From Euglena gracilis (Eukaryota): 64,000 nucleotides of DNA. Both the position numbers and the translations under genes were made by a program. The stretch lies in the NCBI GenBank assembly GCA_039621445.1, contig CP154954.1:46169847-46233846 (forward strand), in the 5' to 3' direction. A model generated the notes under the pieces. The model saw nothing but the letters and a program-made list of their open reading frames with translations. It had not been told where the DNA came from and searched no databases. This document shows positions 16,776-41,272 of the stretch, piece after piece. How positions within the stretch are numbered: the stretch's first letter is position 1; the number at the start of each line of letters is the position of its first letter.

Positions 16776-17380
16776 AGGGAATTGGACCTTTATTCTGGGA
16801 AACATTCAGTGGAAAATTGGTTGCAGGAAAAACGTTATGAGGCGATTTCAGTGGACATCAACCCAGGTTTTCACCCAACCCATCCCGTGGACTTTCCTAC
16901 CGTGGGAGTATCGAGCATACCCCCCTGGAAACTTTCAGGTCATAACGGCATGTGTGCCTTGCACGGGGTATAGCCGTGCTAAGACGGTGGGAGAAAGAAG
17001 TTTGGAGTGGCAGACCAACTTGTGACAATAACTTTGGAAATCGTGGAATGTTTTCAGCCCAAATTATGGTGGATTGAAAATCCCCGAACGGGACTTTTGC
17101 CAAAAAGGCATTGTGTGCAACACTTGAATTTTATCGATGTGGATTATTGTCAACGTTCTGACTGGGGATACCAAAAACCCACTCGGATTTGGGGGAATGA
17201 AAATTTGTTGAGTTTGAAAACAAACTTTGTGATGGGAAAAACCTGCCCGCATTTGATTGTGAGGGAAGGGGGTGGTTTGGTTCACAAAGAACAGTTTGGA
17301 GGAAACGGAATGAGGGTGAGCATTCAACAAAATGGGGGCCACCTGAAAAATTAGTTGAGTACCTTCTTTCGGCCCTTGAT
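16776..17380 (+). pseudogene. C5-cytosine DNA methyltransferase domain in element A, copy 1 (frameshifted)
   Basis: Motif I LDLYSG, II SVDIN, IV VPCTGYS (catalytic PC), VI WWIENP and VIII-like DYCQ...YQKPTRIW. Confidence 0.85.
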
Positions 17381-17409
17381 TTTAAGAAGAAAAGATTTTC
17401 CTTTAAGTG

Positions 17410-17790
17410 TGAGGCTTATGCCGTTCGAAACTCATTTGTGCACATGATCGAGGAGAATTTTCAAATAAGGGCCGAGAGAGGTGGATTTTTTTGCTTCTAC
17501 CCAAAATTCTCAGTGCACATCATGTTTGACCGAGAAGGGAAATGCTTTGGCGGTACCATGGGGAGGGGTGGGGCACGGTTTGGTTGAACCCCTCCTTGGT
17601 CATTATGGCCAAAGGTGGCAAAGAAATTGCGATTGCATCTTGCGTGATTGGAGCAAAGTTTGGGTAAGGTAATTTATCGGGAGGCATCAAAAAGTTTTAT
17701 TTTCCACCCGGAAGCAAGCTTTTTGAGGTGGATTGGAAACGAATGTGGGGTGTTAGGTAGGGAGTTTGGGCCTTGTTGATAGAGGGTAAT
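17410..17790 (+). pseudogene. Dam-like N6-adenine DNA methyltransferase domain in element A, copy 1 (frameshifted)
   Basis: EAYAV...DFFAS..NS...NAL..PW; WLNPPW is restored by removing one C from the run at about 17589-17592; followed by DW...LFE...VRW-like motifs. Confidence 0.75.
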
Positions 17791-20700
17791 AAGTCCCCCG
17801 CTATCACCGGCAACCCCAGGGAACCTAGGGTGGTACAGTTGAAGTTACGAATGTTTAAAAGGAGGTACCCACCCACAGGGATTAAGAAATTTTTGAAGGA
17901 CCGACGACTTTTGATTCGGACTAGGGTTGTTTTGGGGAACGGTGAGGAACAAAATATGGACATTTTGGCAGACACCGGTGCCGAGCCTAACCTCATTAGG
18001 CAAGGGTTAGTGAGTGAGCACCTGATGTATTCGGCCGAACACCCCTTGAGGTTTGAAACCACTAACGGTCAAGCCTTGAGTGGTGGGGGGAGGTGCACTA
18101 ATGTGGTGATGACGTTGCAAGGGGAGGTGAGTGACAACACACCACCCACATATTTTGAGTACGATGTGTAATTTTAAGAAGCCAATATAAAAGTCGACGT
18201 AATTCTATCATACCGATGGTTTGTATGCACAAAAATCGAAGTTTTTCCACACCACCGTGCCTTGGTAGTGGAGGAACCGGAATTGACATTTTTGTTCGGA
18301 GTGAGAGATCACAGGAGAAAACGGCAACGAAAAGTCCCTTGCACCCTACCCCAAGGAGGGGGTGTGACAAATTTGGAAAAGCTTGGCTTTCGCATTCTGA
18401 TGGAGGGTTATTGATTAATGGGGAAAAGCCTTGGACGAAGATTCACTCAAAAATTTGGGCAGGAATTTGGAAACTGCAAGTGACAACCCCCTACTGTTAT
18501 TCACAAAATGATCACTGCAAGGGAGTGGAAGGGGAGTAAAGAAACGGAATCCGAAGAGGAAGACATAATAATAAAGCTAAGAGAGGAAATTTTTGGAAGG
18601 TATGATGGAACCGTATTTCGGTCTAAGGAACAACCCGACCCACCCGTAAGAGGTCCATATGGTTATGCATTATTATCTTTGCAAGAAGGAGCGCGGCCTA
18701 CCCGACAAAAACCTTTTTTCATGCACGGGGAACGAAAAGAAGCTTTGGAAAAAATCACTCAAGATTGGATCGATATGAAATTCATCGAGCCAGCCACAAC
18801 AAAATATTCAGAATGGCTCTCACAAACATTCCCTGTGCCCAAAAAGTCAGCCGATTTCCCTTGGAGGGGGGTTTTGACACAAGGGGACACAACAGCCAAT
18901 CCAGTAGATGCAACCGCCGTCTTCCTAAAATCGAACACATCCTGGTGAAGAATGGTGCAAAAGATGTTCTCCATTTTGGATTTAAAACAAGCCTTCCACC
19001 AACAGCCGCTTTACCCGGATAGCAGGCCTATAACTTGCTCCTTCACACCAAAGGGTCTTTACCAATGGAGGGTGAATGTAATGGGGTTGTGGCATTAGAC
19101 ATGTCCCTACCTTTCAGATGAATTAGGCTGCGCCAGATAATGCCCGCGTGCTGCACACTCCGATTTTTGTTTTTTATGTACAGCCAGACCTCATGAATTG
19201 ATTGCTGGACCCATGGGTCGTGGCCCCCTGGCGTATATCTGGATCAATGGACTGACTGAAGGTTTGTGCTGTGGCTGAAGTTTGAAAAATTGAAGTGGAA
19301 GTTGCCTGCCAATGGGTAGTAAAATCATTTTGGTGCAGTTATCCACACTTGCAACTTGATTTCAGGAAGCTTAATGGCTCATTTCCAGTTGAGCGGTGAT
19401 TTCGCGAACTTTTCCCACTGTTTTTCCCAAGCGCATGAAAGTTCTGCCTACTTGTGCATCCCCTTGGGGGTTGCCTTTTGGCCCCCTCAACCTGCCCCCT
19501 CCTTTACCTACCCTTGCCTTGGCCAAAAAGTCTGTGGGGTCCCCTTGGGGGCCAGTGGGGCCTCAAAAGGCCCTTGTGGGGCCTTGGAGCCCCCTCGCGG
19601 CCCTTCGTGGCCCCTTTGGGCCCCCTTGTGACCCCTCCTTGGGGCGGGCACCGCCGGACCGCGCACAAGATTTTCAGTGGACCATAGATTAACAGCCAAC
19701 GAGGGGACGTTAATTTTGACACAGCCAGACCCTTAAAATTTAATGTCAGCAGATTTAACAGCCGAGTCTTCTAATCTGGCCATAGGGTGGCCAGCCGGGC
19801 TGTTAAATCATGCAGGGTCTAACATGGAAATCAGGAGGGATGAGGAAATGGGAACTCGCACTACCTGTTTTTCAGCCCCCCGTTTTTGGACCACGGCCCC
19901 CCGAATCAAATTGTCAGATGATGGGGGGTGATGCAATGACTTTACTTTGACTCATGGACCAATGGGCACATGGGGCGGATTGTTATTAACAGGAATTGAG
20001 CCGAAGCATAACTAACCGGGAGAGCATAATTCCCTCCAAGGTCGTAATTGAAAATCGGCTGGAAGTTGTGAGAAGAATTTGGCTGAAAAGAATGCCAGAG
20101 CACAGGCAGGACTTTTGCAATCCATTCCTGAAAATTTGGAGAGGCGAACGGCTGAAATGTGCAGCCAGTTTGAGCACGAAAAACAAAAATTCAGGAGCAA
20201 ATTCAGCAATCAGTCAGTCAATTTACTTTTTGATGCCAGGATAGGGGGAGTGCTGTGGAAAACATTGCGAACAGCCACAAACAGCTTTTGGGGATTGAAG
20301 TTAAAAGGCAGATCGAAGGAAAGTTTCATGATCTTGAGAAAAAGTTACGAGATTTTCTGGGTTGTCAACTAGCACAATTTGAGAGCCATGGAAAAGACGT
20401 CCAGATAAAATTGTTTGCACCAGGTGGGTTGATCGAACAAGTTGGAATTTGTTCGCATTCTGTTGAGGGAATTAACTCAGGTTTTCAGAAGGAAATTTTG
20501 GCAGTTCGACAAGCAAATCGTGGCCTATGCTCTGGGGTGGACAGAAAAATTGCTGAAAACGCTGCTGGGCTGAAAATGGTGGGGGAGGAATCAAAATCAA
20601 GTTTTGGGACATTGGCCCAGGAAAATCAGCAGCGATTTGAAGCAACTAGAAACGAAAGCAAAGCTCTTGGGGGCAGGATCACAGCAACTGAGAAATTTCT

Positions 20701-23190
20701 GGGCAGCCAGGAGGTGCCTTGGGTGAAGGTGGTTGAAATGCTGTGGAAATCAGAAGCAACAATTCAACTGGATGTTTGGAGGGAAATGGCCGCCCAGGTC
20801 AGAAAAATGATGAAATCTTTGATGGTGCAAATGAAGGATGAAAATCTGAGGCAAAACCAAAAGGAAGAACATTTTTAAAAACTGCAAACTGACATTGAAA
20901 TGGAGTGAAACAGCAATTTTTCACAGTTTTGATGACATGCAGACGGATTTTCAGTGTGAAAAGAGTTAACGGGATGGTTTGCAAAAAACCGTATCAAACT
21001 TTGCGGTTCGGGAAATTTCAGCCGAAAATGCACAGCAAACTGACCGCAAGGCTCCTATGTGGCCCAGCCCAAGGCTACAAATCAAAAGAATTAAGGATTT
21101 TTTGGAATTAAGAGGGTGTCACCAGCTCAATCATCTGAGGTTTTCGGGATTAAGGGGGTGACCACAACGATGCCGTGTGAAGTCTGGGATGTAGATCTGA
21201 GCGGGTGCAGACCATCAAGTAGTTTGCAGGGGGTGCAGTTGCAATAAATCAGGTCATTGGCATTTGTGCCATTGGGCGGGAACCCCAGCGACCCGCAGTC
21301 ATAAGTGTTGGTAACTCAGCGGTGCAGCATGTGTTGAGAAATTTGATTGCACCCAAATTTTCGGGGAAATCTCATGATTGGCTGCAATTTTGTGAGGATT
21401 GGCAGGAATTTTCAAGGAAACTGAATTCTGCAGGGGGGGGAGTGAGTGAAGATTATAAAGTTGCTCTGTTGCTGGATTGTCTTGACAAAACGAGCAAAAA
21501 AATTCTATAGCTTCATCTCAATAAAGGGGTGATAAATTTTAATGCCGTTTAGGGTCACCTGGAAATGACATTTTCAGGGAATCAGGAAGGTGGGGCAAAA
21601 CAAAGTTGGCAGCAGGTGAGCCTTTTTAATATGGGCAAAGTAGCCCTTGAGCACTGGCTTGAGTTTCAGGCAAAGTTCAATATGGCCAAGTACAAGGTTA
21701 AGGATGTCGGGGAGGGGGAAGCAAAACGACATTTGTTGCAGAAACTTCCCTCATTCATCCTAAAATGGGTTTCATATGACAGGAAAAGGAGGCGGAATAA
21801 TCAGCCAACCTTACGCCTTTCGGCATCCCCTTTTTTTTTATGCCTCCCTCCTCTACCTTCTTCTTTCACTTTGTTCTTCCTTTCATGTTCCGGAGGTCGG
21901 ATATGCTTCCTACTAGCCATCACCTTACGCCTAAAGGTGCCAGTGAATAGGATTCAGAAATGGTTTCGGACAGCTTGGGGAGAATGCTTGGGAAAAGACC
22001 CACAAAAGTGTCGGAAATGCACGAGGGGAAATTCGAAGTCATTTTCCCTGACATTTCTGCCTATGAAAAAGTCAAAAGTTTTTATGGCAAAGAGTTTGAC
22101 GATTCAATCGTTTTGTTTCAGGTTCAGGAAATTGAACCAATTTCGACCACCGAGGATATCTTCAACCTCGTGAAAGCAAAGTTGACACTCAGAAACAAAC
22201 ATGAAGCCTTGCAAAGTTCTGTTTCATCCCCAGGCTATCAAGGGCTTTGGCGTTCAAGATCGGTTGGCGCTGAAAATCGAGGGGGGAGACAATCGGGGAG
22301 TCGGAAGAGTTCACCTGGGTGTACCCCGGGTAGGGCAATGAAACCTCCCCCAACCAGAAGCAAATCGCAAATCAGCGAAACAGCATAACCTGATCAATCT
22401 GTTGCGTTATAATCTTCAAATGTGCAGACATCAAGCACTTCTTCAAGGCTGACAACGGTGGAGAACCCACCCAATGGGCAAAGACCGGTGGTGGGGGGGC
22501 ACAATGGATCCCACCCCCGTCACAGTCAACAACGCCCTATTTTGCCAGACAAGCCCCGTGGAACAGAAACAATTTTCAGCCGTATGACAAGGGCAGCCAA
22601 TGGAAAGGGGGGAACAATTCCCAGGGTTATGGGGAAAATAACCCCCAATGGTATGGGGGTAACCAACAGGGGTACAAGGGGAAGGGTGGTAAGGGCAGGG
22701 GGAGACAGAAGGTTATGACCAGAATTTCAGTGTCAAAGGGGGGAAGGGCAAGAACAATAACCCTACACCAACGATTGCCACCCCTGTACGCCTTTAGGGA
22801 TGATGGGGTAAAATTTATCAGGGGCTTATAACCCCAGGCAGTGAAACCCCCAACCCAGCTTCTAAACCCGACCCTTCCACCCATAAACTCCAAACCACGA
22901 ACAATCGAACCACAAACGAAATGACCGGGAGCGGAGCTTGGAGTGAAGTCAAATTGGCTGGCCGAGCTTAGTGTGATGGAGTGAGGGAGCGAGAAGCCAA
23001 GACCCCCCGGAGCCAAGGAGAGCAGTCACGGCGAGGAGGCGGGCGAAGGAGGTATGAAGGGGAAGCGAATCCCCTCCCATTCCTTTCGCGTGCACATCCC
23101 TCCAAATTCTACATGCCAATTCAAAACTATCATGATTGTTTGAGTGGGAATAGGTGGGCCTCAAACAAAAAGTTGGCCAGAAACTTTCCC

Positions 23191-23795
23191 AGGGAATTGG
23201 ACCTTTATTCTGGGAAACATTCAGTGAAAAATTGGTTGCAGGAAAAGCGTTATGAGGCGATTTCAGTGGACATCAACCCAGGTTTTCTCCCAACCCATCC
23301 CGTGGACATTCCTACCGTGGGAGTATCGAGCATACCCCCCTGGAAACTTTCAGGTCATAACGGCATGTGTGCCTTGCACGGGGTATAGCCGTGCTAAGAC
23401 GGTGGGAGAAAGAAGTTTGGAGTGGCAGACCAACTTGTGACAATAACTTTGGAAATCGTGGAATGTTTTCAGCCCAAATTATGGTGGATTGAAAATCCCC
23501 GAACGGGACTTTTGCCAAAAAGGCATTGTGTGCAACACTTGAATTTTATCGATGTGGATTATTGTCAATGTTCTGACTGGGGATACCAAAAACCCACTCG
23601 GATTTGGGTGAGTGAAAATCTGTTGAGTTTGAGAACAAACTTTGTGATGGGAAAAACCTGCCCGCATTTGATTGTGAGGGAAGGGGGTAGTTTGGTTCAC
23701 AAAGAACAGTGTGGAGGAAACGGAATGAGGGTGAGCATTCAACAAAAATGGGGGCCACCTGAAAAATTGGTTGAGTACCTTCTTTCGGCCCTTGA
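23191..23795 (+). pseudogene. C5-cytosine DNA methyltransferase domain in element A, copy 2
   Basis: RELDLYSGKHS, VPCTGYSRAKT, WWIENPRTG, DYCQCSDWGYQKPTRIW and motif X-like PPEKLVEYLL, spread across ORFs 22981-23388, 23252-23440 and 23422-24003. Confidence 0.85.
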
Positions 23796-23825
23796 TTTTA
23801 AGAAGAAAAGATTTTCCTTTAAGTG

Positions 23826-24200
23826 TGAGGCTTATGCCGTTCGAAACTCATTTGTGCACATGATCGAGGAGAATTTTCAAATAAGGGCCGAGAGAGGTGG
23901 ATGTTTTTGCTTCTACCCAAAATTCTCAGTGCACATCACGTTTGACCGAGAAGGGAAATGCTTTGGCGGTACCATGGGGAGGGGTGGGGCACGGTTTGGT
24001 TGAACCCCCCCTTTGTCATTATGGCCAAAGGTGGCAAAGAAATTGCGATTGCATCTTGCGTGATTGGAGCAAAGGTTGGGTAAGGTAATTTCTCGGGAGG
24101 CATCAAAAAGATTCATTTTCCACCCGGAAGCAAGCTTTTTGAGGTGGATTGGAAACCAATGGGGGGTGTTAGGTGGGCAGTTTGGGCCTTGTTGATAGAG
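23826..24200 (+). pseudogene. Dam-like N6-adenine DNA methyltransferase domain in element A, copy 2
   Basis: EAYAVRNSF...DVFASTQNS...GNALAVPW...VWLNPP...DWSKGW...GSKLFEV...GGVRWAVWALL, reading across frameshifts. Confidence 0.75.
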
Positions 24201-25505
24201 GGTAATAATTCCCCCGCTATCACCGGCAACCCCTAGAAACCTAGGGTAGTACACTTGAAGTTACGAATGGCTAAAAGGAGGTACCCACCCACAGGGATTG
24301 AGAAATTTTTGAAGGCCCGACGACTTTTGATTCGGACTAGGGTTGTTTTGGGGAACGGTGAGGAACAGAATATGGACATTTTGGCAGACACCGGTGCCGA
24401 GCCTAACCTCATTAGGCAAGGGTTAGTGAGTGAGCACCTGATGTATTCAGCCGAACACCCCTTGAGGTTTGAAACCACTAACGGTCAAGCCTTGAGTGGT
24501 GGGGGGAGGTGCACTAATGTGGTGATGAAGTTGCAAGGGGAGGTGAGTGACAACACACCACCCACATATTTTGAGTACGATGTGTAATTTGAAGAAGCCA
24601 ATATAAAAGTCGACGTAATTCTATCATACCGATGGCTTGTACGCACAAAAGTCGAAGTTTTTCCACACCACCGTGCCTTGGTAGTGGAGGAACCGGAATT
24701 GACATTTTTTTTCGGAGTGAGAGATCACAGGAGAAAACGGCAACGAAAAGTCCCTTGCACCCTACCCCAAGGAGGGGGTGTGACAAATTTGGAAAAGCTT
24801 GGCTTGCGCATTCTGATGGAGGGTTATTGATCAATGGGGAAAAGCCTTGGACGAAGATTCACTCAAAAATTTGGGCAGGAATTTGGAAACTGCAAGTGAC
24901 AACCCCCTACTGTTATTCACAAAATGATCACTGCAAGGGAGTGGAAGGGGAGCAAAGAAACGTAATCCGAAGAAGAAGACATAATAATAAAGCTAAGAGA
25001 CGAAATTTTTGGAAGGTAAGATGGAACCGTATTTCGGTCTAAGGAACAACCCGACCCACCCGTAAGAGGACCATATGGTTATGCATTATTACATTTGCAA
25101 GAAGGAGCGCGGCCTACCCGACAAAAACCATTTTTAATGCACGGGGAACGAAAAGAAGCTTTATAAAAAACCACTCAAGATTGGATCGATATGAAATTCA
25201 TCGAGCCAGCCACAACAAAATATTCAGAATGGCTCTCACAAACATTCCCGTGCCCAAAAAGTCAGCCGATTTCCCTTGGAGGCGGTTGTTGACACGAGGG
25301 GACCCAACAGCCAATGCAGTAGATGCAACCACCGTCTTCCTAAAATCGAAGACATCCTGGTGAAGCATGGTGCAAAACCAGACGTTCTCAATTTTGGATT
25401 TAAAACAAGACTTCCACCAACAGCCGCTTCACCCGGACAGCAGGCCTATAACTTGCTCCTTCACACCAAAGGGTCTTTACCAATGGAGGGTGAATGTAAT
25501 GGGGT

Positions 25506-25884
25506 TGTGGCATTGGACATTTCCCTACCTTTCAGATGAATTAGGCTTCGCCAGGTAATCTGCTCATTTTTTTTCTGTACAGTCAGACCTCATGAGTTGA
25601 TTGCTAGGCCCATGGGTCGTGGCCCCCTGGCGTGTATCAGGATCATGGGACTGACTGAAGGCTTGGAGATTTGAGTTTTGTGCTGTGGCTGAAGTTTGAA
25701 AAATTGAAGTAGAAGTTGCCTGCCAATGGGTGGGAATCCAAGGCCCACGGCGGAAGGCGAAGCAAAGGTATTGCAAAACCCAAGGCGAAGCCGAAGCCAG
25801 CCAAACAGGGGGCCCGGGGTCGGGCAGCTAAAAATGTATGAATTGCGAAGATAGCCCCCACCCAGGCGCCGCCCCTGTTTTACA
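25506..25884. mobile_element. Solo LTR (379 bp) inserted in the RT of element A
   Basis: Ends tgtggc...ttttaca; TSD gggt at 25502-25505 and 25885-25888; removal restores MGLTNA. A truncated copy sits at 19088-19317. Confidence 0.85.
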
Positions 25885-26173
25885 GGGTTAACTAACGCCT
25901 CACAACAAATACAACAAATGATGGATGACCGTTTAGCACCTGTAAGGGATATTGCCACCCCATACATTGATTACATTTTGGTAGGGTCCACTTTCGGGGA
26001 GGGGGAGGGTGTCCCCGAGGCAAACAAAAGGGTTTTGTGTAGGGTTTTGGATTTACTCACCGAGGAAATTTTTGTAGTGGACTCCAAAAAAGCGAAACTA
26101 TTCATCAAGGAAGTGGAATTTTGTTGCCAGATTTTTGGGGCATGGCACGCGTCGGCCGGCCCCCGGCAAATTA

Positions 26174-26722
26174 AACCCCCCCCCCAAATATAAGAAACCC
26201 CTCGCTATAAGAAACCCCCAAATATAAGAAACCCTTTGGCTGATTTTCAGCCGACACCCAAATATAAGAAACCCCCAAATATAAGAAACCCCTGGGCTGT
26301 TGGACGTCAATCCAAATATAAGAAACCCCTCATTTTCACCATGGGTCACAGCAAATCTCAAGGCGCGATCAACACAAAGATGAAGCCAATCTAGTCTATT
26401 GCTTCTTTGCAAAGCAAGAGTTCAGAAGCAACTGCTTTTTGGAAACACCTGTCCGTGTCACGACCCCCTTCCCGACTGTTTGAATGGCAGTCAGACATGA
26501 GGACAATCCTACACACACATGTGATGATTAATTACATGTGGTCACATGTAATTAATTATATGAAGGAACCGAAGGAAGAAAAAGTTCCATTTATAAGAAA
26601 CCCTTGGGGCCGGCCTTCGACACCCAAATATAAGAAACCCCCAAATATAAGAAACCCTTTGGGCCGATCGGCCGACACCCAAATATAAGAAACGGGTTTC
26701 TTATATTTGGGGGGGGGGGGTT
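26174..26722. mobile_element. TA-targeting MITE inserted in the RT of element A
   Basis: TIR aa(c)n-aaatataagaaaccc / gggtttcttatattt-(g)n-tt with TA flanks; removal restores PGKL|RAIEKW; many aaatataagaaaccc subterminal copies. Confidence 0.9.
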
Positions 26723-29700: not shown

Positions 29701-30732
29701 GCGGGCATTCCTTCAAAGTTAGGATGGAGGAAGGAAGGGGGAACGGAGGTTGGAAGGTTCCGTTTGTCAATTACCAACGTGACCACAATCAACTCCTCCA
29801 CCGCCGCCTTCACCTCCAACGCCGACACCAACACCACCGCCCCCATCAACCACGCCTTAGCACTCCAACTTCTACGCTCGACGACTTCAATAGCACACAA
29901 AACATCATGCCGGGTTGGGGGGTGAGGAATGGAGAAGGAGGATGGCGCGCCGAGTACAGGCGCGTGTTGGAAATGAGGGGTTCCGGGGAACTCAACGAAA
30001 TTTGTGGAAATTGTTCTCGTGAGACGAACCATTTTGTTGCCAACAATATTTGAGCAGGGGCGAAAGTACACAAAAACCTGCACGACGTGCGGATTTGAGG
30101 ATGATTGCACGCCATGGGGGGATGCGCTGACAAGGAAAGAGGTTGGGACACAAACAAATGTGTTGGAGATGGGGCCTTTGGACAACACACATCCCCCTCG
30201 AAGGTATGGACCCCCCATTTTTGGGAGCCGCGGTCGAGTGGGAGCCGGAGGCCACTCATCCCCCTCCCCCCCCACGACGTGCGGCTTCGCAAGCCCCCCT
30301 GAACTCCAACGACGGTTGAATGGACAAGCCCCCGGACCACGGCCACGACCACAACAAGAAGCCCCCATGAATGGAGGGTTTAACACAACGTGGTCCGAAG
30401 AATGAATAATTTTTGAAATCGGCCTATATGCCTTTTCTCTCACTCTCCTTTTTTTTCTCCCAACCCCAATGCATTTCTCTCTTCTTTTTTCTACAGCCCA
30501 CAAAAGCTACTTTTCTGCCAGAACGCAAGACCCGGGTGGCCGCGGCCCAGGCCCGACCCACATACAGTATGATTTGCCTCCCTACCCCCCACACGCCCAT
30601 GCGGCGGCCCCACCAGCCCAAGGGACGTCCGCGTATGTGCGTATGTGGTATATCAACCCCGTCCTGCCGCCTGCGCGGCCCAGGCACAAATGCCACCTCC
30701 CGCTCAAACGGTTCAGGCACAAATGCCATATC

Positions 30733-33700
30733 TGGACGTTTCAGAATATTCTTTTGTGTTCCTTGAAATCCTCGGATTTACAATTTTCTTGATATCCCAA
30801 TTGTCCCAAAGAGGTAAACACAAGCCAATGTGACATGAAACCAGAGCCAGCAGTCTGCGGGGGGGGGGGGGAGGGAAGTTCGAATTAGGAATACAAAAGT
30901 CAGTTCCGCAGTTGGTAAGGTAAGCGGTCAGCAAATAGTTCGCACACGACCCCCATGCCGGAGGACGCGGCGCCACAGGCACAGGACGAAACAGCATCAC
31001 ACCACAAAAAAAGGCGGCTTTACGGTTTTTCAAGCATTGATGAATGTGTTCCACACGAATTGTCCACAAAAGGTTCAGAACGACAAATGTCAACACAAAG
31101 AAAGGTAAAAGAGGTTACTTCCGACATTCACCGCGGTCCCTTCACTTCGTGGTTGGCTTGCATTTCAAAGGTAACACAAACCTGGGCGAAACTCCTTGCA
31201 TCAATGGCAGGTTTGCGACTGAAAGCCCTCAAAGGTTAGATGACAATCCACCATGGCGAGGCGGGTTGGTGTCTCCTGACCCGAAAAAACATCCAAAAAG
31301 GCCCCCTAAGGGGCTTGACTTTCTTCCCGCGTGTCTGAAAGCACGATCAAAACGTTTGGGGAGAGGCCAGGCTGTCTCTTGAGATGCCAATCCCCATTCA
31401 CATTCTTAAACGTCACAAAACATTCTGAGCGCCTGACGCATGCTCCCACCAAACCAAAAATTTCCATTCCCCTTGGTTCTTGTGCTCAAAATCTTGTAAA
31501 CATTGTAAAAACCCAATTGTGCTTGTTCTTCTTCTGACATCTGAAGGAGGGTCCCATCCCTGGTATGGCACGGGGGTGACACCTGCACTGGGTCTCCCAC
31601 AACCACATCACCGGTCAAAAGGTCTGGGTCTTCTTCCTAAAGACTTTCTTCATTCAAAGCAACCTCCCACTTTTTGCAAAAACCCAAAGAAACATAAATG
31701 ACCCCTCCCAAAGATGGACTGCCTGCAATTTGCACTGAATTGAACCTCAATTTGAGAACCCGAAAAGGTCCTTGCCAGGGGGGGAAAGCTTGGGCAATGA
31801 TTTTTTTGGCCATGTGAACCAAAACATAGACATCTTCTTGAATTTCTTGCTGGTACCCTCCCTTTGTTGGCACTCTCAAAATCTTTTTCCCTCAATTCTT
31901 TCAATCTCTGGGAAGCTCTTTCTTGAATTTCAATGTGGGTCAAAAGCCAGGAATGGGTGTCTGGGTTTGTCACCGGTTCTGGGGGTAATTCAAACCTCCA
32001 AGGTGGTCTTCCCAAAAACATTTCATGGTGTGACAGCATTGTTGTGGGGGGAACCTGTGAATTCATCAAAAATGTGCAATACGGAATCAATTGAACCCAA
32101 TTTTTGTCCTTGGAAGACAGACACAAAGCTCTCATACTCTGCAAAAACATTTTGTTGACATTTACAACCAAACCGTTTGATCTGTGGTTCCGGGGTAGCG
32201 AAAACGATAATTTCACGTCTAGAGCTTTTAACGCTGTCTGGTAAAAACCACTGGGCTGTCTGAATTGCACGTCGTTGTCAGACCTCACAACGGATGGTTT
32301 TCCAAAAACAGCAATCCACCTGTCTAAAATAAGCCTCAAATCACCTTCTCCGGTTACCGTTTTCTGTGTGGGGATGAATTGGCAAAAATGGGACAAATTA
32401 TCGACCAAAGTCAGCACATAGTCAATACCATTGTAGGGGTCCATTTGCATAAAATCCAAACACAAAACTTCACTGCTCACTGTTGACATCGGTAAAGAAC
32501 CCACCTTTCATCGGTCACTGGGGCGGTTTTGTTTTGAAAGGGTGCAAATTTCACAGGTCATCACAATGGCCTTGCAAATTTCCAACATGTCTTTCTTGGA
32601 CACCTTCGACTGAAATGGCTCAAAAAGAACAACAAAGTCCTTTCAGCACCCACATGGTTGCTTGCCTTGTGACATTCATCCAAACAAACCTTCAGCAAAT
32701 GAGATGGAACAACCAACGTTCCTTCGTAATACATTGCCTTGGCAGATCTGAACCAGAGCTCATTGTCAGTGAAACAGGGTTTTGAAACCTCCACATTTTC
32801 CCAAAATTCTTTCAGTTCTGAATTCAAATAATCCTTTTCTGACACTTGCACTCTGTGGGACACACTGAAAATCTTTTGCAAAAACAGGTCAAGCTGCACA
32901 TCCATTTTCTGAAGAGCGCTCCCTGCTTCTTCCTCAAAACGAATTTCAAATTTGCTCTCAAAATCAGCACGAGCCAAAACATCACACAATTCATTTTTGC
33001 AACCTGCCACAAGAACAACGTTCAGTTTGAACTGGTGCAAAAGCACATACATCCTTCTCAGCCTTTTTTTGGGGGGTTCACCCTTCAGAAAAGAGGTGGC
33101 TGCCTCATTGTCTGTCATCCACACAATTGGCAAATGTTGCAAAATCCTTGTTTGTGAAGCAGTGGTCAGCACACCACTCAAAATTTCCTTTACCCAGGTT
33201 GTGTATTTTTTTCTTGCCTCACTCCACTTCCAGTTGTAGTGGCCCAAGGGCACCAACCTCATTTCACTGGGGTAGTTGTTTTTCAGGGTCCCCTCCACTT
33301 TCACACAACTTGTTCGAAAATTTTCAGGAATTTGTGTTTGTTGGAGGGTTTGCCACTGAAACAAAGTAGGACCACTCTCAAATCCGAACTTTCAGTCACC
33401 AAAACAATCTCTCCTGAACTCCTGGGGGTACCTAAAACATCAAGGGATGATAATTTCCTTTTCAAAGCGTTCAAACAACTCTCCTCCTTTTCAGTCCACC
33501 TCCATTTCACCTTCTTTTCAGAAGATCTGTCAGTGGGGCTGAGTCAAAGGTAAAACCTTTCACGTGATTGTGATAAAAATTCATGGCCCCCAAAATTCGC
33601 CTCAAATCCCTTTGGTTCTGAACTCGAAAACTCAGAAATGGTTCAACGTTTCTTTTTTTTTCCTGCCACATTCCCCATCCCAACAAGAAACCCAAGTAGT

Positions 33701-36700
33701 CAATAGTATGATTCAGAAAAGAACATTTGCTCAATTTGATTCTCACGTGGTTCTTTCTGCAAACTTCAAACCACTTTCCCAAAAGATACAAATGGTCCTC
33801 CTCAGAATTCGCACCAACCCCTGTGTCATCGAAAAAAAGAAGCCAGATGTCCATCTTTCAAAATTTCTCTCACCCTCAAATCCGTTTTCCATTTGGAGGT
33901 TAGGATTTCCGTCAGCTCCTGAAAAATTTCTGGGGCATTCATCAACCCAAACATCATCCTCTTTGGACGAAAACACATTCCCTGAAGGAATGCAAAATGC
34001 AGAAAAATTTGCTGCTCTTTTTGTGATTGGGATTTGCCAATACCCACTCCTGATGTCCAGGGTACTTTTGAACCGACACTTGGCAAAACTTTCAATCAGG
34101 ATCCCCATGTTTGGCAAAAAACCTGCATGCGCTTTGCTTCTGGAATTCAATTTTCCATAATGAATGACCATCGTTCTGGTACTTGACCCTTTTTTGTCCA
34201 CCAAAAATGTGGGGCTGCACACCTGGTGGATTTCACCAACTGGGAATTGCTGACCCAACCCTGACTTTAGCAATTCTTCGCACTGAAGGTCAATTTCTTT
34301 TTCATCCTCCTGGGGCATGGGCCAACACTTTTGCCTTAGGGTTTCCCTTCCCATTCAGGCTTCAGCTCAATGTCCATCAAAACAGGCAGGGGGAAGACTC
34401 AGAAATTGTGGGCAGTGGTCCAAAAACATCATAAAATTTCACCAAAAGCTCATACAACCTGGGGTGGTTTCTGAATTTCTCAACTTCTTTCTCAAAATCT
34501 CCACTCAGATTCTCAGTAAACAATTTGTGGCTTTTTTCATCAGCCTTTTCTGGGCCTCCAAAGTCCAAACCTTTTCATGTAAAACTTGGGAAATGCTTTT
34601 GAGTTCATCCATCTTGACTGTTGCCTTGGGAGTCTTCACAGATTTCACAAATTGAACATCTTCCACAGGCTTGGACAGCTGGAAAAACATCATCTCCACA
34701 TCTCTTCTCACCTCCTGAAAAAGACGCAGCTCAGTTTCAATGTCCTTTGTCAATTCAGCCAAAAATTGATGTTTTCATGCTCACTCATTGGTTCAAACAC
34801 CACCACATTGTCCAACCATTCCTTCATCTTTTCTTCTGATTCTTTGGAGGGGACTTTCTCCACAGAGAAACTTGGACTTTCAAAAATTTGCCGGGCTGCA
34901 GGTGGATTGGCAGATTGTTGTGCATGCTGCTGGGGGGGAACATCAGGAAGATCTGGGAAATCAACTTGAATTTCATCATCCACTCTGGGGTACTTTCTGA
35001 TCTCACCTCTCAGTTCATGCAAAATCCAATTTCTTGAATCTTTCCTGAGCCAACTGACAGTTCTGGGGTGCAAAAGCTCAAAATCCACTTTGAATTGCAC
35101 TGTGTCCACCACACTCACAAAATTGTTCCACAGGGGGGAGGGCAGCACCTTTTTGCACCTGTCACCGACAAACAAGGGAACCCCACTTTAAATTTTCACC
35201 CTGGCCACCGGTACCCTTTCCAGCAGGGGGGGACCAGTACTGGTCCACCCAGTCTGAGCACACCAGGACCATTTTTGTTTCTTCAAGGCACAACTTGGTC
35301 ACCACTTTGCTTAGTTGGCTGAAGGGGGGGGTTTGCCCACAGAAACTTGGAAGCACCAATGTAACACAACAATTTTTCCTATGAATACCTGTAGGCCGAA
35401 TTCCCTTTCGTCATGTACAAAGACTGTGTGTGGTTCAGGTGGTTTGCAAAAAGATCAATGCAAAACTAACCCTCAGAAATCTTCAATTCTTCCAAAGCTT
35501 TTGACTTCACTGGCTTGACCAAAGGGTAGCTTTATGCCTTGAAAAGTCTGAAAATTATTTTGATGGTGTGGTCTCCATCATGGCTCTGAAGTAAAACCTC
35601 CTCACCGTCGATGATGGTTCTTGGGGGTCTGGTCAACAACCCCTCCAAAAACTCACTCTCTGTGAAGTCAGTCCCAAAAACTGCCTCAAAGGCACAAGTA
35701 TCCACCACAACAGCTTTCAGTTTCAAAATCTTGGACCCAAACTGCAAACACATCTCACACGTTCCCTGGGGAAAAATGTACTCCCCATTGCCGATCTGCA
35801 GGGGTACCGCAGCACTCCGGTCAATTTTATTCTCAGGAAAAAATTTTCTCAGAAACTGCAGTAATGGTGGCCCCTGTGTCCAAAATGGCTTGAACGTCCT
35901 TTCCATAAGCCTTCGCTGGCAAAAGATAAGTTTTACACACCATCTGGAGCAATTGCAAAGCATCAGCTTTTCTCTTTTTCGGGCTTGCACCCTGGGGGTA
36001 ACCTGGGTTTGAACTCCTTGGGGTTGAACGGAGGGGGTCCCTTTGCCTGCCCCCTTCTGGGCTGCCGCCTTCTTTTTCCCAAACTTTTTTTTACGAACAT
36101 CTGTCTTCATAATGCCCTTCTTTTGTGACAAAATCGACAGAAAATTGTGGCTCCAAATCGTAGGGCTGGGGTGTCATCAACTTTTCTTTCACCCTTGCCT
36201 TTGCCTTTTCCTTTGCCTTTTCCTTTTCCACCAGATTTTCCACAAAATCTGTCTGCCCTGATGTCTGCATACATTCTGGGGTGTAATTTTCTCAGCAAAA
36301 CCAGAAACATTTCCTGTTCACTCATGTCCTGGGGGCTCAACCTGGCCATCAAGTTTTCCAACTCGATGAAAAGTTTTTTGATGTCTTGTGGTTCAGGGTT
36401 CTGTGAAAGTGCTGGCAATTTCTCGATGGCAGATCTCAAAGTCATGTCATTTTCCAGTGTTGGGAACAATTTTGCAATTTCCAACAGCACTTTTTCAAAA
36501 TCATCATGCTCTTCCATCACCTTTTCAACCAGTTTTTTCACCTTGGGGGTGCAACACTCCAACAGCCAATCCTTTTTCTGGACATTTCCAAATGCAACAG
36601 CACCAGTTAACCTCAACCATTTGCCAAAATATTTCAAAAGCTCTGGCCAATTTGCACCATCAAACTCTGGCGATTTCACAGGTGGTAATCTTGAACTTTG

Positions 36701-37501
36701 GGTTGAACTTTAGCTGGGGTTGCTGGAGTTTGGTTCCACAATTTGCTTCAGAAATGTTTCAACCTGGGTGATGGGGTTCACAGGAGTAAAACCAGACTGA
36801 CTGCTGCTGGATGCTTTTATTTCCAATTCTTGCAACCTCCTTTCCAAATCTTCAATGGAATACATTTCTGCAGATCACTTTCAAAAAAACTCAACTACTG
36901 GCTCTGTAAACTGAGAGAAACTGGCCAACCCAAAAAGACAAACAAAGCTGAAGAAACCAGAACAGAAAACCAACCACTGGGTTCAGGACCACGTCAGCAA
37001 GATCATGAAGATCTTGCCCCCACCAGGTTCTTGTTCTGGACAGCAAGGTGAACAGCAGCACCAGCAGCTTCAATAGCCAAGTAACCAATACAACAACTGT
37101 TGAATTCTCCACTGAGAACTTGTTGACCACAGCTTGAATGACAACTTCCTGTTGAAGATGTTGTTCTGTACCAGCCACTCGGTTAACCTTGCCTTCAGGA
37201 AGACCAACTTCTGGAACTTCAACAACCAGTGAAACAATGATCAATCTCCTCGAAGACTTCTTGGACGATTGGAACAACAAACCTCTGCGACCAACTTTGG
37301 ATGTCTCACAATAATATTTTGTTTTCCTTGAAATCCTCGAATTCCCAATTTTCTAGATATCCCAATTGTCCCAAAGACGTGAACACAAGTCAATGTGACA
37401 TGAAACCACAGCCAGCAGTCTGAGGGGGGGGGGGGAAGTTCGAATTAGGAATACAAAAGTCAGTTCCGCAGTTGGTAAGGTAAGTCAGCAAATAGTTCGC
37501 A
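30733..37501 (-). mobile_element. Element B: full-length degenerate Ty3/Gypsy retrotransposon with order gag - PR - Dam-like MTase - RT - RH - IN (possible chromodomain)
   Basis: LTRs 30733-30944 and 37298-37501 (TG...CA). TSD atatc at 30728-30732 and 37502-37506. tRNA-type PBS tggtcgcagagg (37282-37293). gag SPEFDG..W, RT SPTFLVDKK / LDIRSGYWQI / FFDD, RNase H WMTDN, integrase LCLDF...VRSDND.QF. Confidence 0.92.
35105..35530 (-). pseudogene. Dam-like N6-adenine DNA methyltransferase domain between PR and RT of element B
   Basis: Manual minus-strand translation: SYPLVK...FCIDLFANHLNHTQSLYMTKGNSAYRYS*EKL...FLWANPP(fs)FSQLSKVVTKLCLEETKMVLVCSDWVDQYWSP(fs)LLE...GVPLF...PLWNNFVSVV. Confidence 0.8.
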
Positions 37502-39724
37502 ATATCCCCCTCAGTCACATATGCCATCCCCCTCTCAGGCACAAATGCCGCTCCCCTCTCAAGCACAACCGCCACTTTGTGTCCATCCGGCCCCTGTGCC
37601 AAGGGGAGCTTCATATGCGGCAAAGCCTCAGCAGGCATATCAAGTTTCAATGGAACAACAACCTCAGCAGGTACACCAGGTTGCAATGGAACAGCAACAA
37701 TATGTGAGGCAGGGATAAGCACCTCCAATGGAGCAGGCGCATTACGCCATGCCTGGTCCCTCACCTCCCATGCTGTACACACCACAGTATGTTACCTCTC
37801 AGCAACCACGGACACAACCCCAACCCCAACCTCAACCCCAACCTCAACCCGTACAGGGGTTGCGGCACCTTGTATTCGCCGAACCAACAGCAGCGAGAGA
37901 AATGGAAGTCAAAAGGGAAAGCATCCATACACATGAAACCAAAACGTCATATGCAAAGATAATGCCCTTTCCCAGAGGTGTGTCCTTAGAATGAAATAAG
38001 TTGGAAAAGGTGAGGAGGGTGGTTCCAGACCTCCCTTGGACTCTCCCCCATTCATTCAGGGAACATTCAGCAAGTACTCGGACTCCCACGACACAGGAAG
38101 GGGGAGGAAGGGACCAAGAGGACGAAGCACAAGAAGATGGTGAGGATGGCTGCCATTGCCTTGGACTTTAGCCCAAGGCCCTGTAGATAGATGGCCGCCA
38201 TGACCATTTTGAGGAGGGTCTCCACATTCCTGCCTTGAACCCTTTGAATTTGTCATATTTCCCTGCCATAGGGGTGGGGAATAGAAAAGGGATGGGTGGT
38301 CTGCCAGACCTGTCCTTCCATCTCCTGACAATGTTTCCTTGATGGAGGACTGTGATGGGTCCCCATGACCCAATGAGCCTTGCCCATGATGGCTTCTCCG
38401 TCGCTTTGCTCTGGCTAAAATTGTCCAGGGTCCATGGCGTCACAAACGTTTTGTTGAAAATGGGAAATTTCTGATGAACTGGGGGGCGAAAGGGGTGTGG
38501 CAGCCACAGACGGACCGGTTGGTCCTGCTCCATCATCATCAGGTTCCCCAGCGCCTGCAGCTCCTCGGTGTTTTCCAGCTTCAGCTGTCTGTTTTGAGCT
38601 TCCTTGTCCTCCCACTTTCTCTTGACAGCTTGATATTTTTTACAAAACAACTTTCATTGAAGTCCGTTGAGCACGTGCTTGATATTTGAGTTTCTTTTGT
38701 CTTTTTTATTTGCAGCACTCGTAGAGTTGAAAGTCTTTCTCCTTGAGGTCGAAGGGCAGAGTTAGGAATCAGCCAACTCCGGCAAAAAAAAGCAGTAAGA
38801 AGCACCCCCCGCACACGCAAAAACACACCAGAGCAGACACCTCGGGCTCCGCACTTTGCCCTTGTGCTCGCCGGCGGTGTTGTGTGATTGTTGCGCGTTG
38901 GGTTAGGACTCCCTGCTTAGTGCCTTTATTTCGCCAGAGTTTGCTGATTCCTAAATTGCCCTTCGACACCCAGAAGAAAGGAGAACACCTCAACTCAAGG
39001 CTACGAAGTCACCAAAGAAAGTTCAAGTCAAACTCAAATTCCAGAACGAGAAGATCCAGCAGAATATCAAACTTCAAAAAAAATTTCAACAACTGACTTC
39101 AATGAAAGATGACTTGGGGAAGAAATTGGTATTACGACGAGAAGCAGCGGTGGCCGCAGCAGCAACCTGGAGATGCGGACAAGCCGTGGCAAGCTGTGGT
39201 CACCCCTTCCCCACCCCTCTCAGAAATTTCACAACAGCCAAACCCCCCCAGTGACCACAGCCATTGGCAGACAGTGGTCAGGAAATCCAGAAAGGGGAAA
39301 GGACCAATGGCCCCAGGCCCTCCAAGGCCCAGGGCCCAGCCCAGACAGGACTTCCAGGGCCAAGTGCCCTTACAATTAAAAATACCAGCCAGAAATTCAG
39401 GCCAGAGGGCCAGAGCCCACATGGGCAGATGGAACCAAGGCCAAGGGGGAGAGCATCACAGAGGCCATGTTGGCGGCGGCCCCTGGGGTGTGGCGCCGGG
39501 CGGGGCCAAAAAAAGACCAACAGCGGAATCTTCCGCTTTGCGGAAGTTCCTAATTTAAGTTTATTGGACTGCCTCTCTGTAGGTGGTTCCGAGCCTGAAC
39601 ACTTCATCCTATCAAGCTGGCAAAGTGTTGTGCATTCAAATATCAAAGGAAGAAGGGAAAAGACACCCCAAAGAGACACCCAGAAAACTGAAGTGTTCAT
39701 CAACCAAACTACCAGAAGACCAGA

Positions 39725-40597
39725 ATGCCAGAGTCAGAGTACCAGAATGCCAAGGCCAGGAGGATGACTGTCAGTTGGAGGCCGGAAGAAAATCACTCGG
39801 AAGTGCAGGAAGCGACAGACTGGAGCTGGAGCAGATGGAGTGTCCGACTTCCAGAAGAAGGATGGAGATCTGCATTGACAGTGTGGGATGGCCAAGAAGA
39901 AGAAGAAGAATCAAGGAGTCCAGCTCCAAGCTATGAAGGTGCAGCTGAAGAACCGGAAGTGCCATTGCAGCCATTCAGGAGGAGAAATGTGGTGATGGAG
40001 AACCGACCAGATCCAGGAGAACCAGAATCAGGACCAGCCACAGATGAGGAGTACTACGAGGTGGAAGAGCCAGAGACCCAGCCAAGACCAAGTGGAAGGG
40101 GAAGAAGAATCAAGAGGCAGTACATCTCCGAGGAGTACGCTGTGAGCTGGGAATTTATCGACCTGATCCTGGAAAAGTTCAACATTCGGAAGGAAAGAGT
40201 GCAAGAAGCATTTGCATCATGGGAAAATGCAAGATTCCCCAAGTTCTGGACGAAGGAAGACAATGCATTTGGGAAGACATGGACAAGAGAAAAGATATGG
40301 GCCAATCCACCGTGGACGCTGATGAATCAAGTCATCCTCAAGATCATCGCGGACCAGGTGCAGGAGATGGTGCTGATTGCACCAGAGTGGCGCACAACAA
40401 CATGGTGGCCAGTGCTGCAGAAGATGACAGTGAAGTTCATCATCTTCGAGGAAGGAACCCGGTTCTTCGAGATCTGGGACCAGCAGGCGGGCCAGATGCA
40501 GCCGACTGGGCCATTGCGTTGGCCAGTCCGGGCGTGCTTGGTCCAGTACCGAAGATTCCGAGGAAGAGACCCTGAAGGGCATGCCCCCAGGAGATGA
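39725..40597 (+). CDS. Dam-like (phage/DIRS-type) DNA N6-adenine methyltransferase with an acidic N-terminal region, intact ORF
   Basis: 290 aa: EEYAV...EAFASWENARFPKFWTKEDNAFGKTW...IWANPPW...VLIAPEW...WWPVL...GTRFFE...PLRWPVRACLV. A basic GRGRRIKR patch precedes the domain. Confidence 0.85.
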   Translation: MPESEYQNAKARRMTVSWRPEENHSEVQEATDWSWSRWSVRLPEEGWRSALTVWDGQEEEEESRSPAPSYEGAAEEPEVPLQPFRRRNVVMENRPDPGEPESGPATDEEYYEVEEPETQPRPSGRGRRIKRQYISEEYAVSWEFIDLILEKFNIRKERVQEAFASWENARFPKFWTKEDNAFGKTWTREKIWANPPWTLMNQVILKIIADQVQEMVLIAPEWRTTTWWPVLQKMTVKFIIFEEGTRFFEIWDQQAGQMQPTGPLRWPVRACLVQYRRFRGRDPEGHAPRR

Positions 40598-40712
40598 AGG
40601 AGCATCGTCCCGAGCCCGCAGGAGAAGTGGAGATGAACGTGGACTCTCCGAGGCGTGCAAGAGGAGGTACCGTCGACAGCGGTACCACTGGTTCACGGAG
40701 ACGTGGGAATGA

Positions 40713-41272
40713 GGCGGTGTAGACCGAGTGTTGCCTGCCATCCCCCTCCCAGCCTAATCCCCTCCTCGGCCAGTATCCAAGATCCCTGATCAGAAAAGGA
40801 TGGAAATCATCATGATTTCAATTGTGCACGTATTGGCTCGGCACAGAAAGAATGACTGAAAAATTCCAGGTGTTGGTTGTCGATTGTCGATGGATGCTCT
40901 GGGAGGTTCGACGGCCCGTCACTCCTGATGGGGGGGGGGTGCTCTGGGCGGTTCGGCTGCCCGTCGCCGAAAATGAATCGTTGGGTTGGTTGGAGTGTGG
41001 TGGTGTGGACCCAAGGGTTGCCTGCCCCCCAATTTCAATTCAGTGGAATTCGATCAGATCTGCAGAATGGTTGGCATAGAGATGGCGGTGTAGACCTGCG
41101 GGTTGCCTGCCCCGTGTATTCTGTTCGATGTGAATTGGAAGCAGATTTGCATGAATCACAGGTGTGTGTGGCGGTGTGAACACGATGTTACCCGCCCCCA
41201 CCTCGATGAAGGAATTGAGGCCCTGGGATCTTGATTTCGAGAGTGGCGGTGTGAACTCCTATGTTACCTGCC
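40713..41272 (+). repeat. Five copies of a 27-28 nt bulged hairpin GGYGGTGTRRAC-N5-6-GTTRCCYGCC with unique spacers
   Basis: Copies start at 40713, 40999, 41084, 41170 and 41245; loops are cgagt, ccaagg, ctgcgg, acgat and tcctat. Confidence 0.8.

Follow-up and report, generated by a model that had tools for sequence, protein, structure and literature searches.

Dam-like methyltransferase domains in probable Ty3/Gypsy retrotransposon remnants of Euglena gracilis

Three Dam-bearing structures in one window

A 64,000-nucleotide (nt) stretch of the Euglena gracilis genome (GenBank assembly GCA_039621445.1, contig CP154954.1, positions 46,169,847 to 46,233,846; hereafter the window, with positions counted from its first letter) consists of decayed, non-genic eukaryotic DNA with a GC content of about 0.50. 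Comparison of the window with itself by BLAST yielded three structures, a tandem duplication (element A) and two direct repeat pairs (elements B and C), each of which carries a domain resembling the adenine methyltransferase Dam. Our analysis makes it very probable that the window holds dead, methyltransferase-bearing Ty3/Gypsy (chromovirus-like) retrotransposons of the DAM-LTR or EpiLTR kind (LTR, long terminal repeat). A sequence-only reading had described three distinct LTR elements with a shared series of Dam motifs at different positions. The motif series is indeed present, before the protease (PR) in A, between a putative PR and the reverse transcriptase (RT) in B, and alone in C, and hidden Markov models (HMMs), tblastn and Pfam show that it is not a chance pattern. 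The description of the elements stands in part: B is bounded by LTRs and a target-site duplication, whereas no LTR was found for A in the window, and C has terminal repeats but no RT.

Element A is a 6.3-kb tandem duplication (13025–19317 and 19324–25731, 96–97% identity) with copies A1 and A2. Self-comparison aligns 13025–15231 with 19324–21524 and 15616–19317 with 22031–25731 (about 96%), and a piece of about 400 bp between them (15230–15617) is inverted relative to A2 (21532–22033). Over 5,878 aligned bases, the copies differ by 195 mismatches and 16 indels (96.7% identity); 90 of the 195 differences are transitions and 20 lie at CpG sites, which gives no clear signature of CpG deamination between the copies. 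Translation shows that the frameshifts and stops of the methyltransferase region are common to A1 and A2, so the duplication is later than the inactivation; a dead copy of A was therefore duplicated segmentally, unless the duplication is an assembly artefact.

Position 16776 is the start of a domain resembling C5 DNA methyltransferases (DNMTs), which the sequence-only reading had missed along with the tandem duplication, having over-read A and C as LTR elements. Translated searches with P0005, an intact public relative of 1,911 amino acids (aa; P0001, P0003 and so on are our working labels for such proteins), place residues 166–940 on A1 (16782–19089) and residues 166–1900 on A2 (23197–29271), where the aligned segments run through three frames with 0–9 stops each; residues 166–477 match A1 at 16782–17702 with E 1.6e-46. 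A custom Dam HMM applied to the six-frame translation recovers the next domain in three frames of A1 (independent E-values (iE) 2.9e-12, 1.1e-6 and 4.7e-16) and three of A2 (7e-12, 1.4e-8 and 4.2e-17), and the Dam domain of C matches the A1 region directly (tblastn E 0.001). This domain has a frameshift at its NPP codons and lies upstream of the ADTGAE protease motif, which is contained in open reading frames (ORFs) 17761–18171 and 24237–24587; Pfam aspartyl protease families match the A1 protease region weakly (E 0.09). The RT HMM matches A2 at 25253–25507 (1.4e-15) and 25882–26133 (7.2e-13), and two inserts, 25507–25885 and 26209–26728, interrupt the RT and RNase H (RH) region. From these alignments, the order of domains in A reads as DNMT-Dam-PR-RT-RH-integrase (IN)-chromodomain. 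The second insert contains a 100-bp direct repeat (26223–26326 and 26592–26693, 82% identity).

Element B has LTRs at 30733–30944 and 37298–37501 that are 88–89% identical and have TG..CA termini on the element strand, and a 5-bp target-site duplication, ATATC, at 30728–30732 and 37502–37506. The LTRs and the target duplication together prove that B is an LTR element. The primer-binding site (PBS) of such elements begins with TGG, as does the PBS-like site of B. A PBS pattern search for A and C returned only the site of B as an exact match, and its three matches with at most two mismatches are at chance level. The claim that the LTRs of the elements are unrelated holds for the LTRs of B and the repeats of C, which share no similarity in the self-comparison, but for A there is no LTR to compare. 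The assignment of a protease to B is tentative and follows from an alignment to the protease of the relatives of A that places DT(N/C)A on DTGA.

The RNase H ORF of B led to six relatives, including P0031 (1,684 aa), which is collinear with B from 35849 to 31440 by tblastn; residues 6–294 match 35849–34978 at 50–72% identity with E 6e-78. P0031 contains a protease-like stretch, a Dam-like region at residues 103–252 and the Pfam domain RVT_1 at 576–747 (82 bits), and its rve and Chromo scores are below the Pfam cut-offs. A word-based homologue search with the 145-aa ORF of B at 34750–35187 scored none of 167 candidates. The reading frames of A and B in the window are broken, but their collinear tblastn maps agree with the domain order of the intact sisters.

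Element C is delimited by terminal repeats of 222 bp (39468–39689 and 41825–42046; 222/223 bp and up to 39690 and 42047 in the self-comparison) that are 99% identical. GCCA flanks it at 39464–39467 and 42047–42050, and a purine run, GGGAGGGGAG, at 41815–41824 adjoins its 3′ repeat. One contig from DNA run X1 of the same organism joins 39463 to 42047, skipping 2,583 bp, with six shared letters, a joint that weakly suggests an empty site. The Dam-like domain occupies approximately 40106–40555 of the window, with the motifs EEYAV, EAFASWEN, NAFGKTW, WANPPW and PEW, and the ORF matches Pfam Dam (PF05869) at E 1.5e-10 with 41.4 bits against a cut-off of 28.1. The RT HMM found no RT near C, which contains neither RT nor IN, and Pfam assigned no family to the neighbouring ORFs. 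C is thus not a Gypsy element in any testable sense; we read it as a short, LTR-bounded non-autonomous element or a remnant with Dam only. An 83-bp inverted repeat pair (89% identity; 38865–38947 and 42941–43020) brackets C and its flanks.

Table 1 Positions of the Dam-bearing structures and their parts in the window
Feature	Position	Strand	Remarks
Element A, copy A1	13025–19317	+	First tandem unit; gag-like ORFs, DNMT, Dam, PR, N-terminal half of RT; ends inside RT insert
A1 C5 cytosine-methyltransferase-like domain	16782–17390	+	LDLYSG, PCTGYS, ENP, DYCQ..GYQKPT; broken by frameshifts and stops
A1 Dam-like domain	17366–17907	+	Three frames; upstream of PR
A1 aspartic protease region	17761–18171	+	ADTGAE; aligns with D[TS]GA region of relatives
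Element A, copy A2	19324–29271	+	Gag-like, DNMT, Dam, PR, RT, RNase H, IN, chromodomain; many frameshifts and stops
A2 C5 cytosine-methyltransferase-like domain	23197–23800	+	Same breaks as A1; P0005 aa 166–539, tblastn E 5e-64
A2 Dam-like domain	23782–24323	+	DVFASTQN, NALAVPW, WLNPP
A2 reverse transcriptase	25253–26139	+	Split by 378-bp insert
A2 chromodomain remnant	29102–29197	+	Two frames; tblastn of P0005 aa ~1843–1875
Element B	30733–37501	−	Complete but decayed LTR retrotransposon; gag, putative PR, Dam, RT, RNase H, IN, chromo-like end
B RNase H and integrase ORFs	31650–33391	−	Pfam RT_RNaseH E 8e-5, rve E 8e-6, both below cut-offs
B reverse transcriptase	33684–34201	−	RT HMM 3e-15, 1.3e-4, 1.2e-9 in three frames
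B Dam-like domain	35106–35558	−	IDLFANHLN, NSAYRYSW, WANPP, SDWVDQYW; three frames with stops; between putative PR and RT
B putative protease region	35532–36173	−	VVVDTCAFEAVFGTDF; within an ORF; no Pfam match
B PBS-like site	37282–37293	−	TGGTCGCAGAGG; 4 nt past 5′ LTR; sole exact match in window
Element C	39468–42046	+	2.6-kb insertion between terminal direct repeats; only Dam ORF and proline-rich repetitive stretch
C ORF	39692–40597	+	Open from stop to stop, 301 codons; Pfam Dam match

Intact relatives and their domain orders

A search with the 201-aa ORF of A2 at 23398–24003 found 29 relatives of A among 250 candidates. Precomputed Pfam annotation places Dam in 12 of them, the C5 family DNA_methylase in 13 and both in 7; our own HMMs detect the DNMT domain in all 29 and Dam in 13. 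The modules occur in several orders around the protease: DNMT-Dam-PR (7 of 29), DNMT-PR without Dam (9), PR-Dam-DNMT-RT (2), Dam-DNMT-PR (1) and Dam-DNMT (1), besides truncated DNMT-Dam proteins (2) and proteins with DNMT only or otherwise truncated (7). P0010–P0015, P0019–P0021 and P0026 are Gypsy polyproteins in which an N-terminal C5 DNMT directly precedes the protease, without Dam.

Fresh Pfam scans of four long relatives of A gave one collinear order. P0005 has DNA_methylase at residues 166–274 (28.2 bits), Dam at 381–445 (44.2 bits), RVT_1 at 855–1021 (76.6 bits), RNase H, Integrase_H2C2, rve (42.3 bits) and Chromo at 1843–1879 (35.4 bits), all of these scores being above the cut-offs. 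The DNA_methylase match reaches 25.3–28.2 bits in P0005, P0008, P0003 and P0001 (cut-off 22), and P0008 has Chromo at 37.5 bits (cut-off 25.1). These four sisters of A hold Dam at the same position as A, in one ORF with a Gypsy-type RT and rve. Pfam detects no methyltransferase among the window's own fragments of A and B, where the identification rests on the intact relatives.

The identity of the DNMT domain was decided by a fold search. In 13 relatives of A the PC and ENP motifs do not vary, and the DNMT part of the AlphaFold2 (AF2) model of P0004 (residues ~100–280) has block-mean predicted local distance difference test (pLDDT) scores of 64–97, mostly 80–97. Its top Foldseek matches are DNMT3B, DNMT3C, DNMT1, DNMT3A, DIM2 and MET1 (E ~1e-8). 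Against PDB sequences, phmmer found no match for P0004, and a profile of the 13 relatives matched only the generic motif I of S-adenosylmethionine (SAM)-dependent methyltransferases (best E 0.0013), with non-significant values for DNMT1 (E 0.23–0.59). The predicted similarity to DNMT1, DNMT3 and DIM2 is one of fold.

The Dam module and its genomic surroundings

The Dam-like domains of the three structures are homologous, as the sequence-only reading had proposed, and strongly diverged. Pairwise BLASTP, with intact proxies in place of A and B, aligns the A proxy with C at E 2e-18 (35% identity over 156 residues), the B proxy (P0031 residues 103–227) with C at E 2e-14 (26% over 126) and the two proxies with each other at E 1e-6 (25% over 189); the RTs of the A and B proxies are 27% identical. 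The custom Dam HMM applied to A, which was built from 12 relatives of A, also matches C at 1.7e-30, and matches B at an iE of 0.044 only. The view that Dam is a recurrent and selected module is supported by its distribution and conservation. With the C domain as query, phmmer against 1.84 billion representative sequences returned 1,526 proteins at E ≤ 1e-3; of these, 160 reach 1e-10 or better and 5 reach 1e-30 or better, and one protein is 95% identical to the query. NPP[FWY] is retained by 152 of the 165 Dam segments examined, together with several aromatic positions. The motif is WANPPW in C, and in A and B the NPP falls at frameshift sites.

An RT tree of 20 rows, from which RT segments shorter than 140 residues were dropped, groups the DNMT-Dam-PR elements together (support 83/98) and nests them, along with DNMT-PR elements that have no Dam, in a clade supported at 100/100; the PR-Dam-DNMT elements fall in the neighbouring group (83/76). 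The family of B is remote and on a long branch, and proteins with the DIRS-like order RT-Dam fall on the other side; B is thus placed, by RT sequence, as a Gypsy lineage distant from A. For the Dam tree, 15 of the 165 segments were dropped for short coverage, leaving 150 rows and 137 columns in a quick search. In this tree the family of A lies in a 46-row clade (support 99) and C in a different subgroup of the 106-row set (96) to which that clade also belongs. The B pair, P0031 and P0171, groups across the tree, where three of the four RT-Dam proteins are also found; the rows are the best matches to C plus the two families, a biased sample in which many forks are poorly supported and the root is arbitrary. 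On the question that the sequence-only reading had posed, one capture with shuffling or several captures, the two trees are compatible with re-ordering of a Dam/DNMT cassette within the lineage of A, and also with a separate or very old origin of the Dam of B. At least three RT lineages have kept Dam, in module orders of several kinds.

The Dam module of about 140 residues is predicted to be a compact, Rossmann-type N6-adenine methyltransferase fold with an NPP[F/W] motif. The AF2 model of the C domain, made with 61 relatives, has a pLDDT of 93.8, and its nearest solved structures are N6-adenine methyltransferases: a cap-specific adenosine methyltransferase (Foldseek rank 1, E 1e-4, TM 0.66; VIA-align Z 10.5 with 135 residues aligned), DIMT1, Erm and KsgA (Z 8.2–8.8), T4 Dam (1q0s; Z 8.4, 108 residues aligned) and E. 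coli Dam (2ore; Z 7.6). Z values of 8–10 are little above those of unrelated Rossmann methyltransferases, and the substrate does not follow from a common fold. Of the features of an active N6-adenine DNA methyltransferase, the catalytic (D/N)PP(Y/F/W) motif is present and a SAM-dependent methyltransferase fold is predicted.

The DNA run contributes 43,920 contig pieces that align to the window at 95% identity or more, which indicates multi-copy families. Expression was assessed in three RNA runs with the same species label, with 5–6 in 100 of each run read. Some RNA reads fall on the A2 inserts (25768–27101) and flanking repeats; in the DNA run the summed contig depth of the insert bins is very high, and they count among the few parts of A that RNA reads reach (depth about 0.1–1.2). 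Short segments on either side of C (38078–38138 and 42696–42733) are covered by RNA reads in two or three of the runs, and at both ends of the segments the loose ends of the reads agree (up to 21 reads). DNA contig depth peaks strongly in the bin 42443–43099, and the segments probably belong to a highly abundant repeat that is transcribed. The copies of A, B and C in the window are non-functional remnants, with the ORF of C as a possible exception.

The ratio of observed to expected CpG is 0.58 in the whole window and 0.34 in B (30733–37501), TpG and CpA are in excess (1.2–1.4) and TpA is strongly depleted (0.44 in the window, 0.23 in B). The CpG depletion would fit a CG-methylating host and is no proof of one.

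Elsewhere in the window, Rfam and tRNA scans gave no matches, and Pfam found no family in six other ORFs. One of these is a 426-codon open frame at 7759–9039 (no family at E ≤ 0.1) with a Cys/His-rich stretch, which may be the C-terminal portion of an ORF from a non-LTR retrotransposon. Two direct repeats of 371 bp with 99% identity (10610–10980 and 11821–12191, spacing 1,211 bp) may mark a further short element between LTRs or a duplication of local origin. Satellite arrays span 44948–46872, with 43-bp units (44948–45319 and 46372–46872) on either side of an array of ~112-bp units (45390–46400). Long imperfect palindromes at 3942–4447 and 56173–56998 are about 78–81% identical to their own reverse complements (518 and 884 aligned bases), and 63451–63763 is a long microsatellite rich in (CA/TG)n with a periodicity of 8–14 bp.

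Known systems, alternatives and meaning

DIRS1-like retrotransposons with an MT domain were reportedly described by Goodwin and Poulter. Such a Dam-like MT domain is reported from DIRS1-like elements (Piednoel et al. 2011, PMC3266345), and passages of the Chlamydomonas v6 paper refer to no MT domain other than a DIRS-derived one. LTR elements outside DIRS are first shown to carry DAM by Fernandez-Moreno et al. (May 2026, bioRxiv 10.64898/2026.05.21.726589), whose main text counts 10,030 eukaryotic DAM proteins, 53.9% of them tied to retrotransposons, and describes at least four transfers of DIRS-derived DAM to Ty3/Gypsy elements, termed DAM-LTRs. A subset with DAM, DNMT and chromodomain, the EpiLTRs, is reported there from Cymbomonas and Euglena gracilis, a species with heavy CG methylation, and the EpiLTR DNMT is described as a separate acquisition that is sister to DNMT4. 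Cytosine methyltransferases had already been found in retrotransposons, with self-methylation of the retrotranscribed DNA proposed (de Mendoza et al. 2018, PMC5890265); SymbioDIRS-DNMT3, SymbioLINE-DNMT and Gypsy-DNMT3 are examples named in the preprint.

Our elements resemble the DAM-LTRs and EpiLTRs in being Ty3/Gypsy or chromovirus-like polyproteins with a DIRS-type DAM, a subset of which adds a C5 DNMT and a chromodomain (bioRxiv 10.64898/2026.05.21.726589). The domain combination of DAM-LTRs, Dam with Gypsy RT, RNase H and rve and without a tyrosine recombinase, occurs in the sisters of A and B (P0005, P0008, P0003 and P0031) and is absent from C; that of EpiLTRs, a C5 DNMT in the same polyprotein and a C-terminal chromodomain, is found for A. 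The claim that Dam belongs to Gypsy elements thus holds for A and B, whose sisters have Gypsy RT and rve, but does not extend to C. Incongruent DAM and RT trees and common orphan DAM-only sequences are likewise features of the preprint. There, however, DAM-only sequences are treated as degenerate remnants, whereas C looks like a bounded insertion with near-identical terminal repeats. For the Euglena type, a domain order is not stated in the main text of the preprint; among the relatives of A we find DNMT-Dam-PR, PR-Dam-DNMT, Dam-DNMT-PR and DNMT-PR. The preprint's figures or supplements may hold these orders already.

With DIRS1-like elements, ours share the Dam-like family, and the relatives of the C domain include RT-RNase H-Dam proteins. 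In contrast to that group, which has a tyrosine recombinase, the order RT-RNase H-MT and inverted or split terminal repeats, A and B have an rve-type integrase, no tyrosine recombinase, and Dam upstream of RT rather than after RNase H, and B has direct LTRs and a target-site duplication. The elements of de Mendoza et al. also combine a retrotransposon polyprotein with a C5 cytosine methyltransferase, but in A the DNMT is at the N-terminal end of pol and fused to Dam. Phage and bacterial Dam (PF05869) shares the NPP[FWY] catalytic-type motif and the Rossmann fold, with Pfam scores above the cut-off for C and P0005, whereas only profile positions ~12–123 of 169 are matched and the domain is a ~140-residue part of a polyprotein whose action on DNA is putative.

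How active copies would use these modules can be proposed only tentatively, and we regard the following self-marking scheme as possible, at somewhat less than even odds. The Dam carried by the polyprotein would methylate adenines on the element's own replication intermediate, an RNA-DNA hybrid or new cDNA, and in A-type elements the DNMT would methylate CG. A new insertion would arrive in host chromatin already bearing marks that promote its persistence or transcription, and the chromodomain would steer integration. In the preprint, DAM-LTR insertions are enriched for N6-methyladenine (6mA).

Several observations weigh against the reading of the window as methyltransferase-bearing Gypsy remnants or against this mechanism. 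No LTR pair for A was found in the window, even by sensitive BLASTN of 19000–22500 and 8000–13100 against 29100–44000. Pfam gave no methyltransferase match for four A fragments or for the B Dam fragment from the window, and the Dam of P0031 scores 20.4 bits (E 4.5e-4), below the cut-off of 28.1. The alignment of the B protease region to that of the relatives of A is weak (hhalign E 0.0034, probability 9.5%). The repeats of C begin with TG and end with CT, not CA, no PBS was recognised in C, and the joint that would mark its empty site comes from one contig whose shorter side has 22 letters. By structure, the C domain is closest to an RNA methyltransferase of cap adenosines rather than to a DNA Dam, and expression of representative eukaryotic DAMs in E. 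coli lacking dam did not increase 6mA (bioRxiv 10.64898/2026.05.21.726589). RNA depth is 0 over the A2 methyltransferases (23100–25767), at most 0.13 over the Dam of B, and 0 over 39775–40441, which is most of the Dam domain of C, with at most 0.33 over 40442–41108.

The structural result and the E. coli result are both expected if the domain was retained for something other than DNA methylation, either acting on cap-adjacent or internal adenosines of element RNA or serving as a non-catalytic module that binds nucleic acid or SAM. The eukaryotic domain also lacks the CD-1 and TR-1 parts of bacterial Dam (bioRxiv 10.64898/2026.05.21.726589). However, Pfam places the domain in phage-type DNA Dam, the Z values barely exceed those of unrelated Rossmann methyltransferases, and the 6mA enrichment on DAM-LTR insertions points to DNA, so we consider this alternative unlikely. 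A related proposal centres on C. It could be a non-autonomous LTR element that still moves and carries nothing but an intact Dam-type ORF, mobilised in trans by Gypsy machinery, with a Dam that works on retroelement RNA or RNA-DNA hybrids rather than duplex DNA and acts as a diffusible epigenetic or epitranscriptomic helper for the element community, alongside a Dam and DNMT two-gene cassette that would have been re-ordered repeatedly around the protease within one Gypsy lineage. We hold this to be quite unlikely.

Alternatively, the methyltransferase modules may be neutral cargo, picked up by template switching and heading for loss. Every copy in the window is broken or solitary, RNA depth over the Dam regions is 0 to at most 0.33 in the three runs, and 9 of the 29 relatives of A, close kin with the order DNMT-PR(-RT), have no Dam. 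Yet 152 of 165 diverged sequences retain NPP[FWY] and several aromatic positions, Dam recurs in three or more RT lineages and in several orders, and long intact polyproteins exist (up to 1,911 aa), which together make neutral cargo very unlikely. Least credible of all is that the Dam segments are DIRS-type fragments nested by chance in unrelated Gypsy copies as mere passengers, the outcome that the sequence-only reading had named as fatal to its claim: Dam-like domains were classically known only from DIRS (bioRxiv 10.64898/2026.05.21.726589), four of the seven long relatives of the C domain that have an RT show the DIRS-like order RT-(RNase H)-Dam, and C has no RT or IN and lies between the 83-bp inverted repeats (38865–38947 and 43020–42941), but the sisters P0001, P0003, P0005, P0008 and P0031 hold Dam in place in one ORF with RT and rve, with RNase H and chromodomain in the same frame, Phage_integrase (the tyrosine recombinase family) occurs in none of the 18 proteins scanned with Pfam, and self-BLAST shows no repeat or boundary flanking the Dam segment inside A or B. 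The sister ORFs refute nesting for A and B.

The reading of the window as dead, methyltransferase-bearing Ty3/Gypsy remnants thus agrees with the structural proposal of the sequence-only reading, which was right, and its interpretation as a whole is partly supported; the roles that it suggested for the methyltransferases, such as cDNA protection or mimicry of 6mA chromatin, are conjectures. A literature search found no earlier paper on Dam in Gypsy elements, and the concept of Dam-bearing Gypsy elements has been in print since May 2026; the finding is real and is not a discovery. Possible increments are the variety of module orders among the relatives of A, the Dam-only, LTR-bounded C, and the structural nearness of its domain to an RNA adenosine methyltransferase.

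For the biology of these elements, the window offers a compact natural comparison of one Dam module in three contexts, before the protease, after a putative protease and alone, in one case fused to a C5 DNMT. The Dam-less sister family on the same RT clade would provide a natural control for any benefit of the Dam module. Retrotransposons with DNA-modifying enzymes of their own would mean that mobile elements can write host epigenetic marks, not merely evade them.

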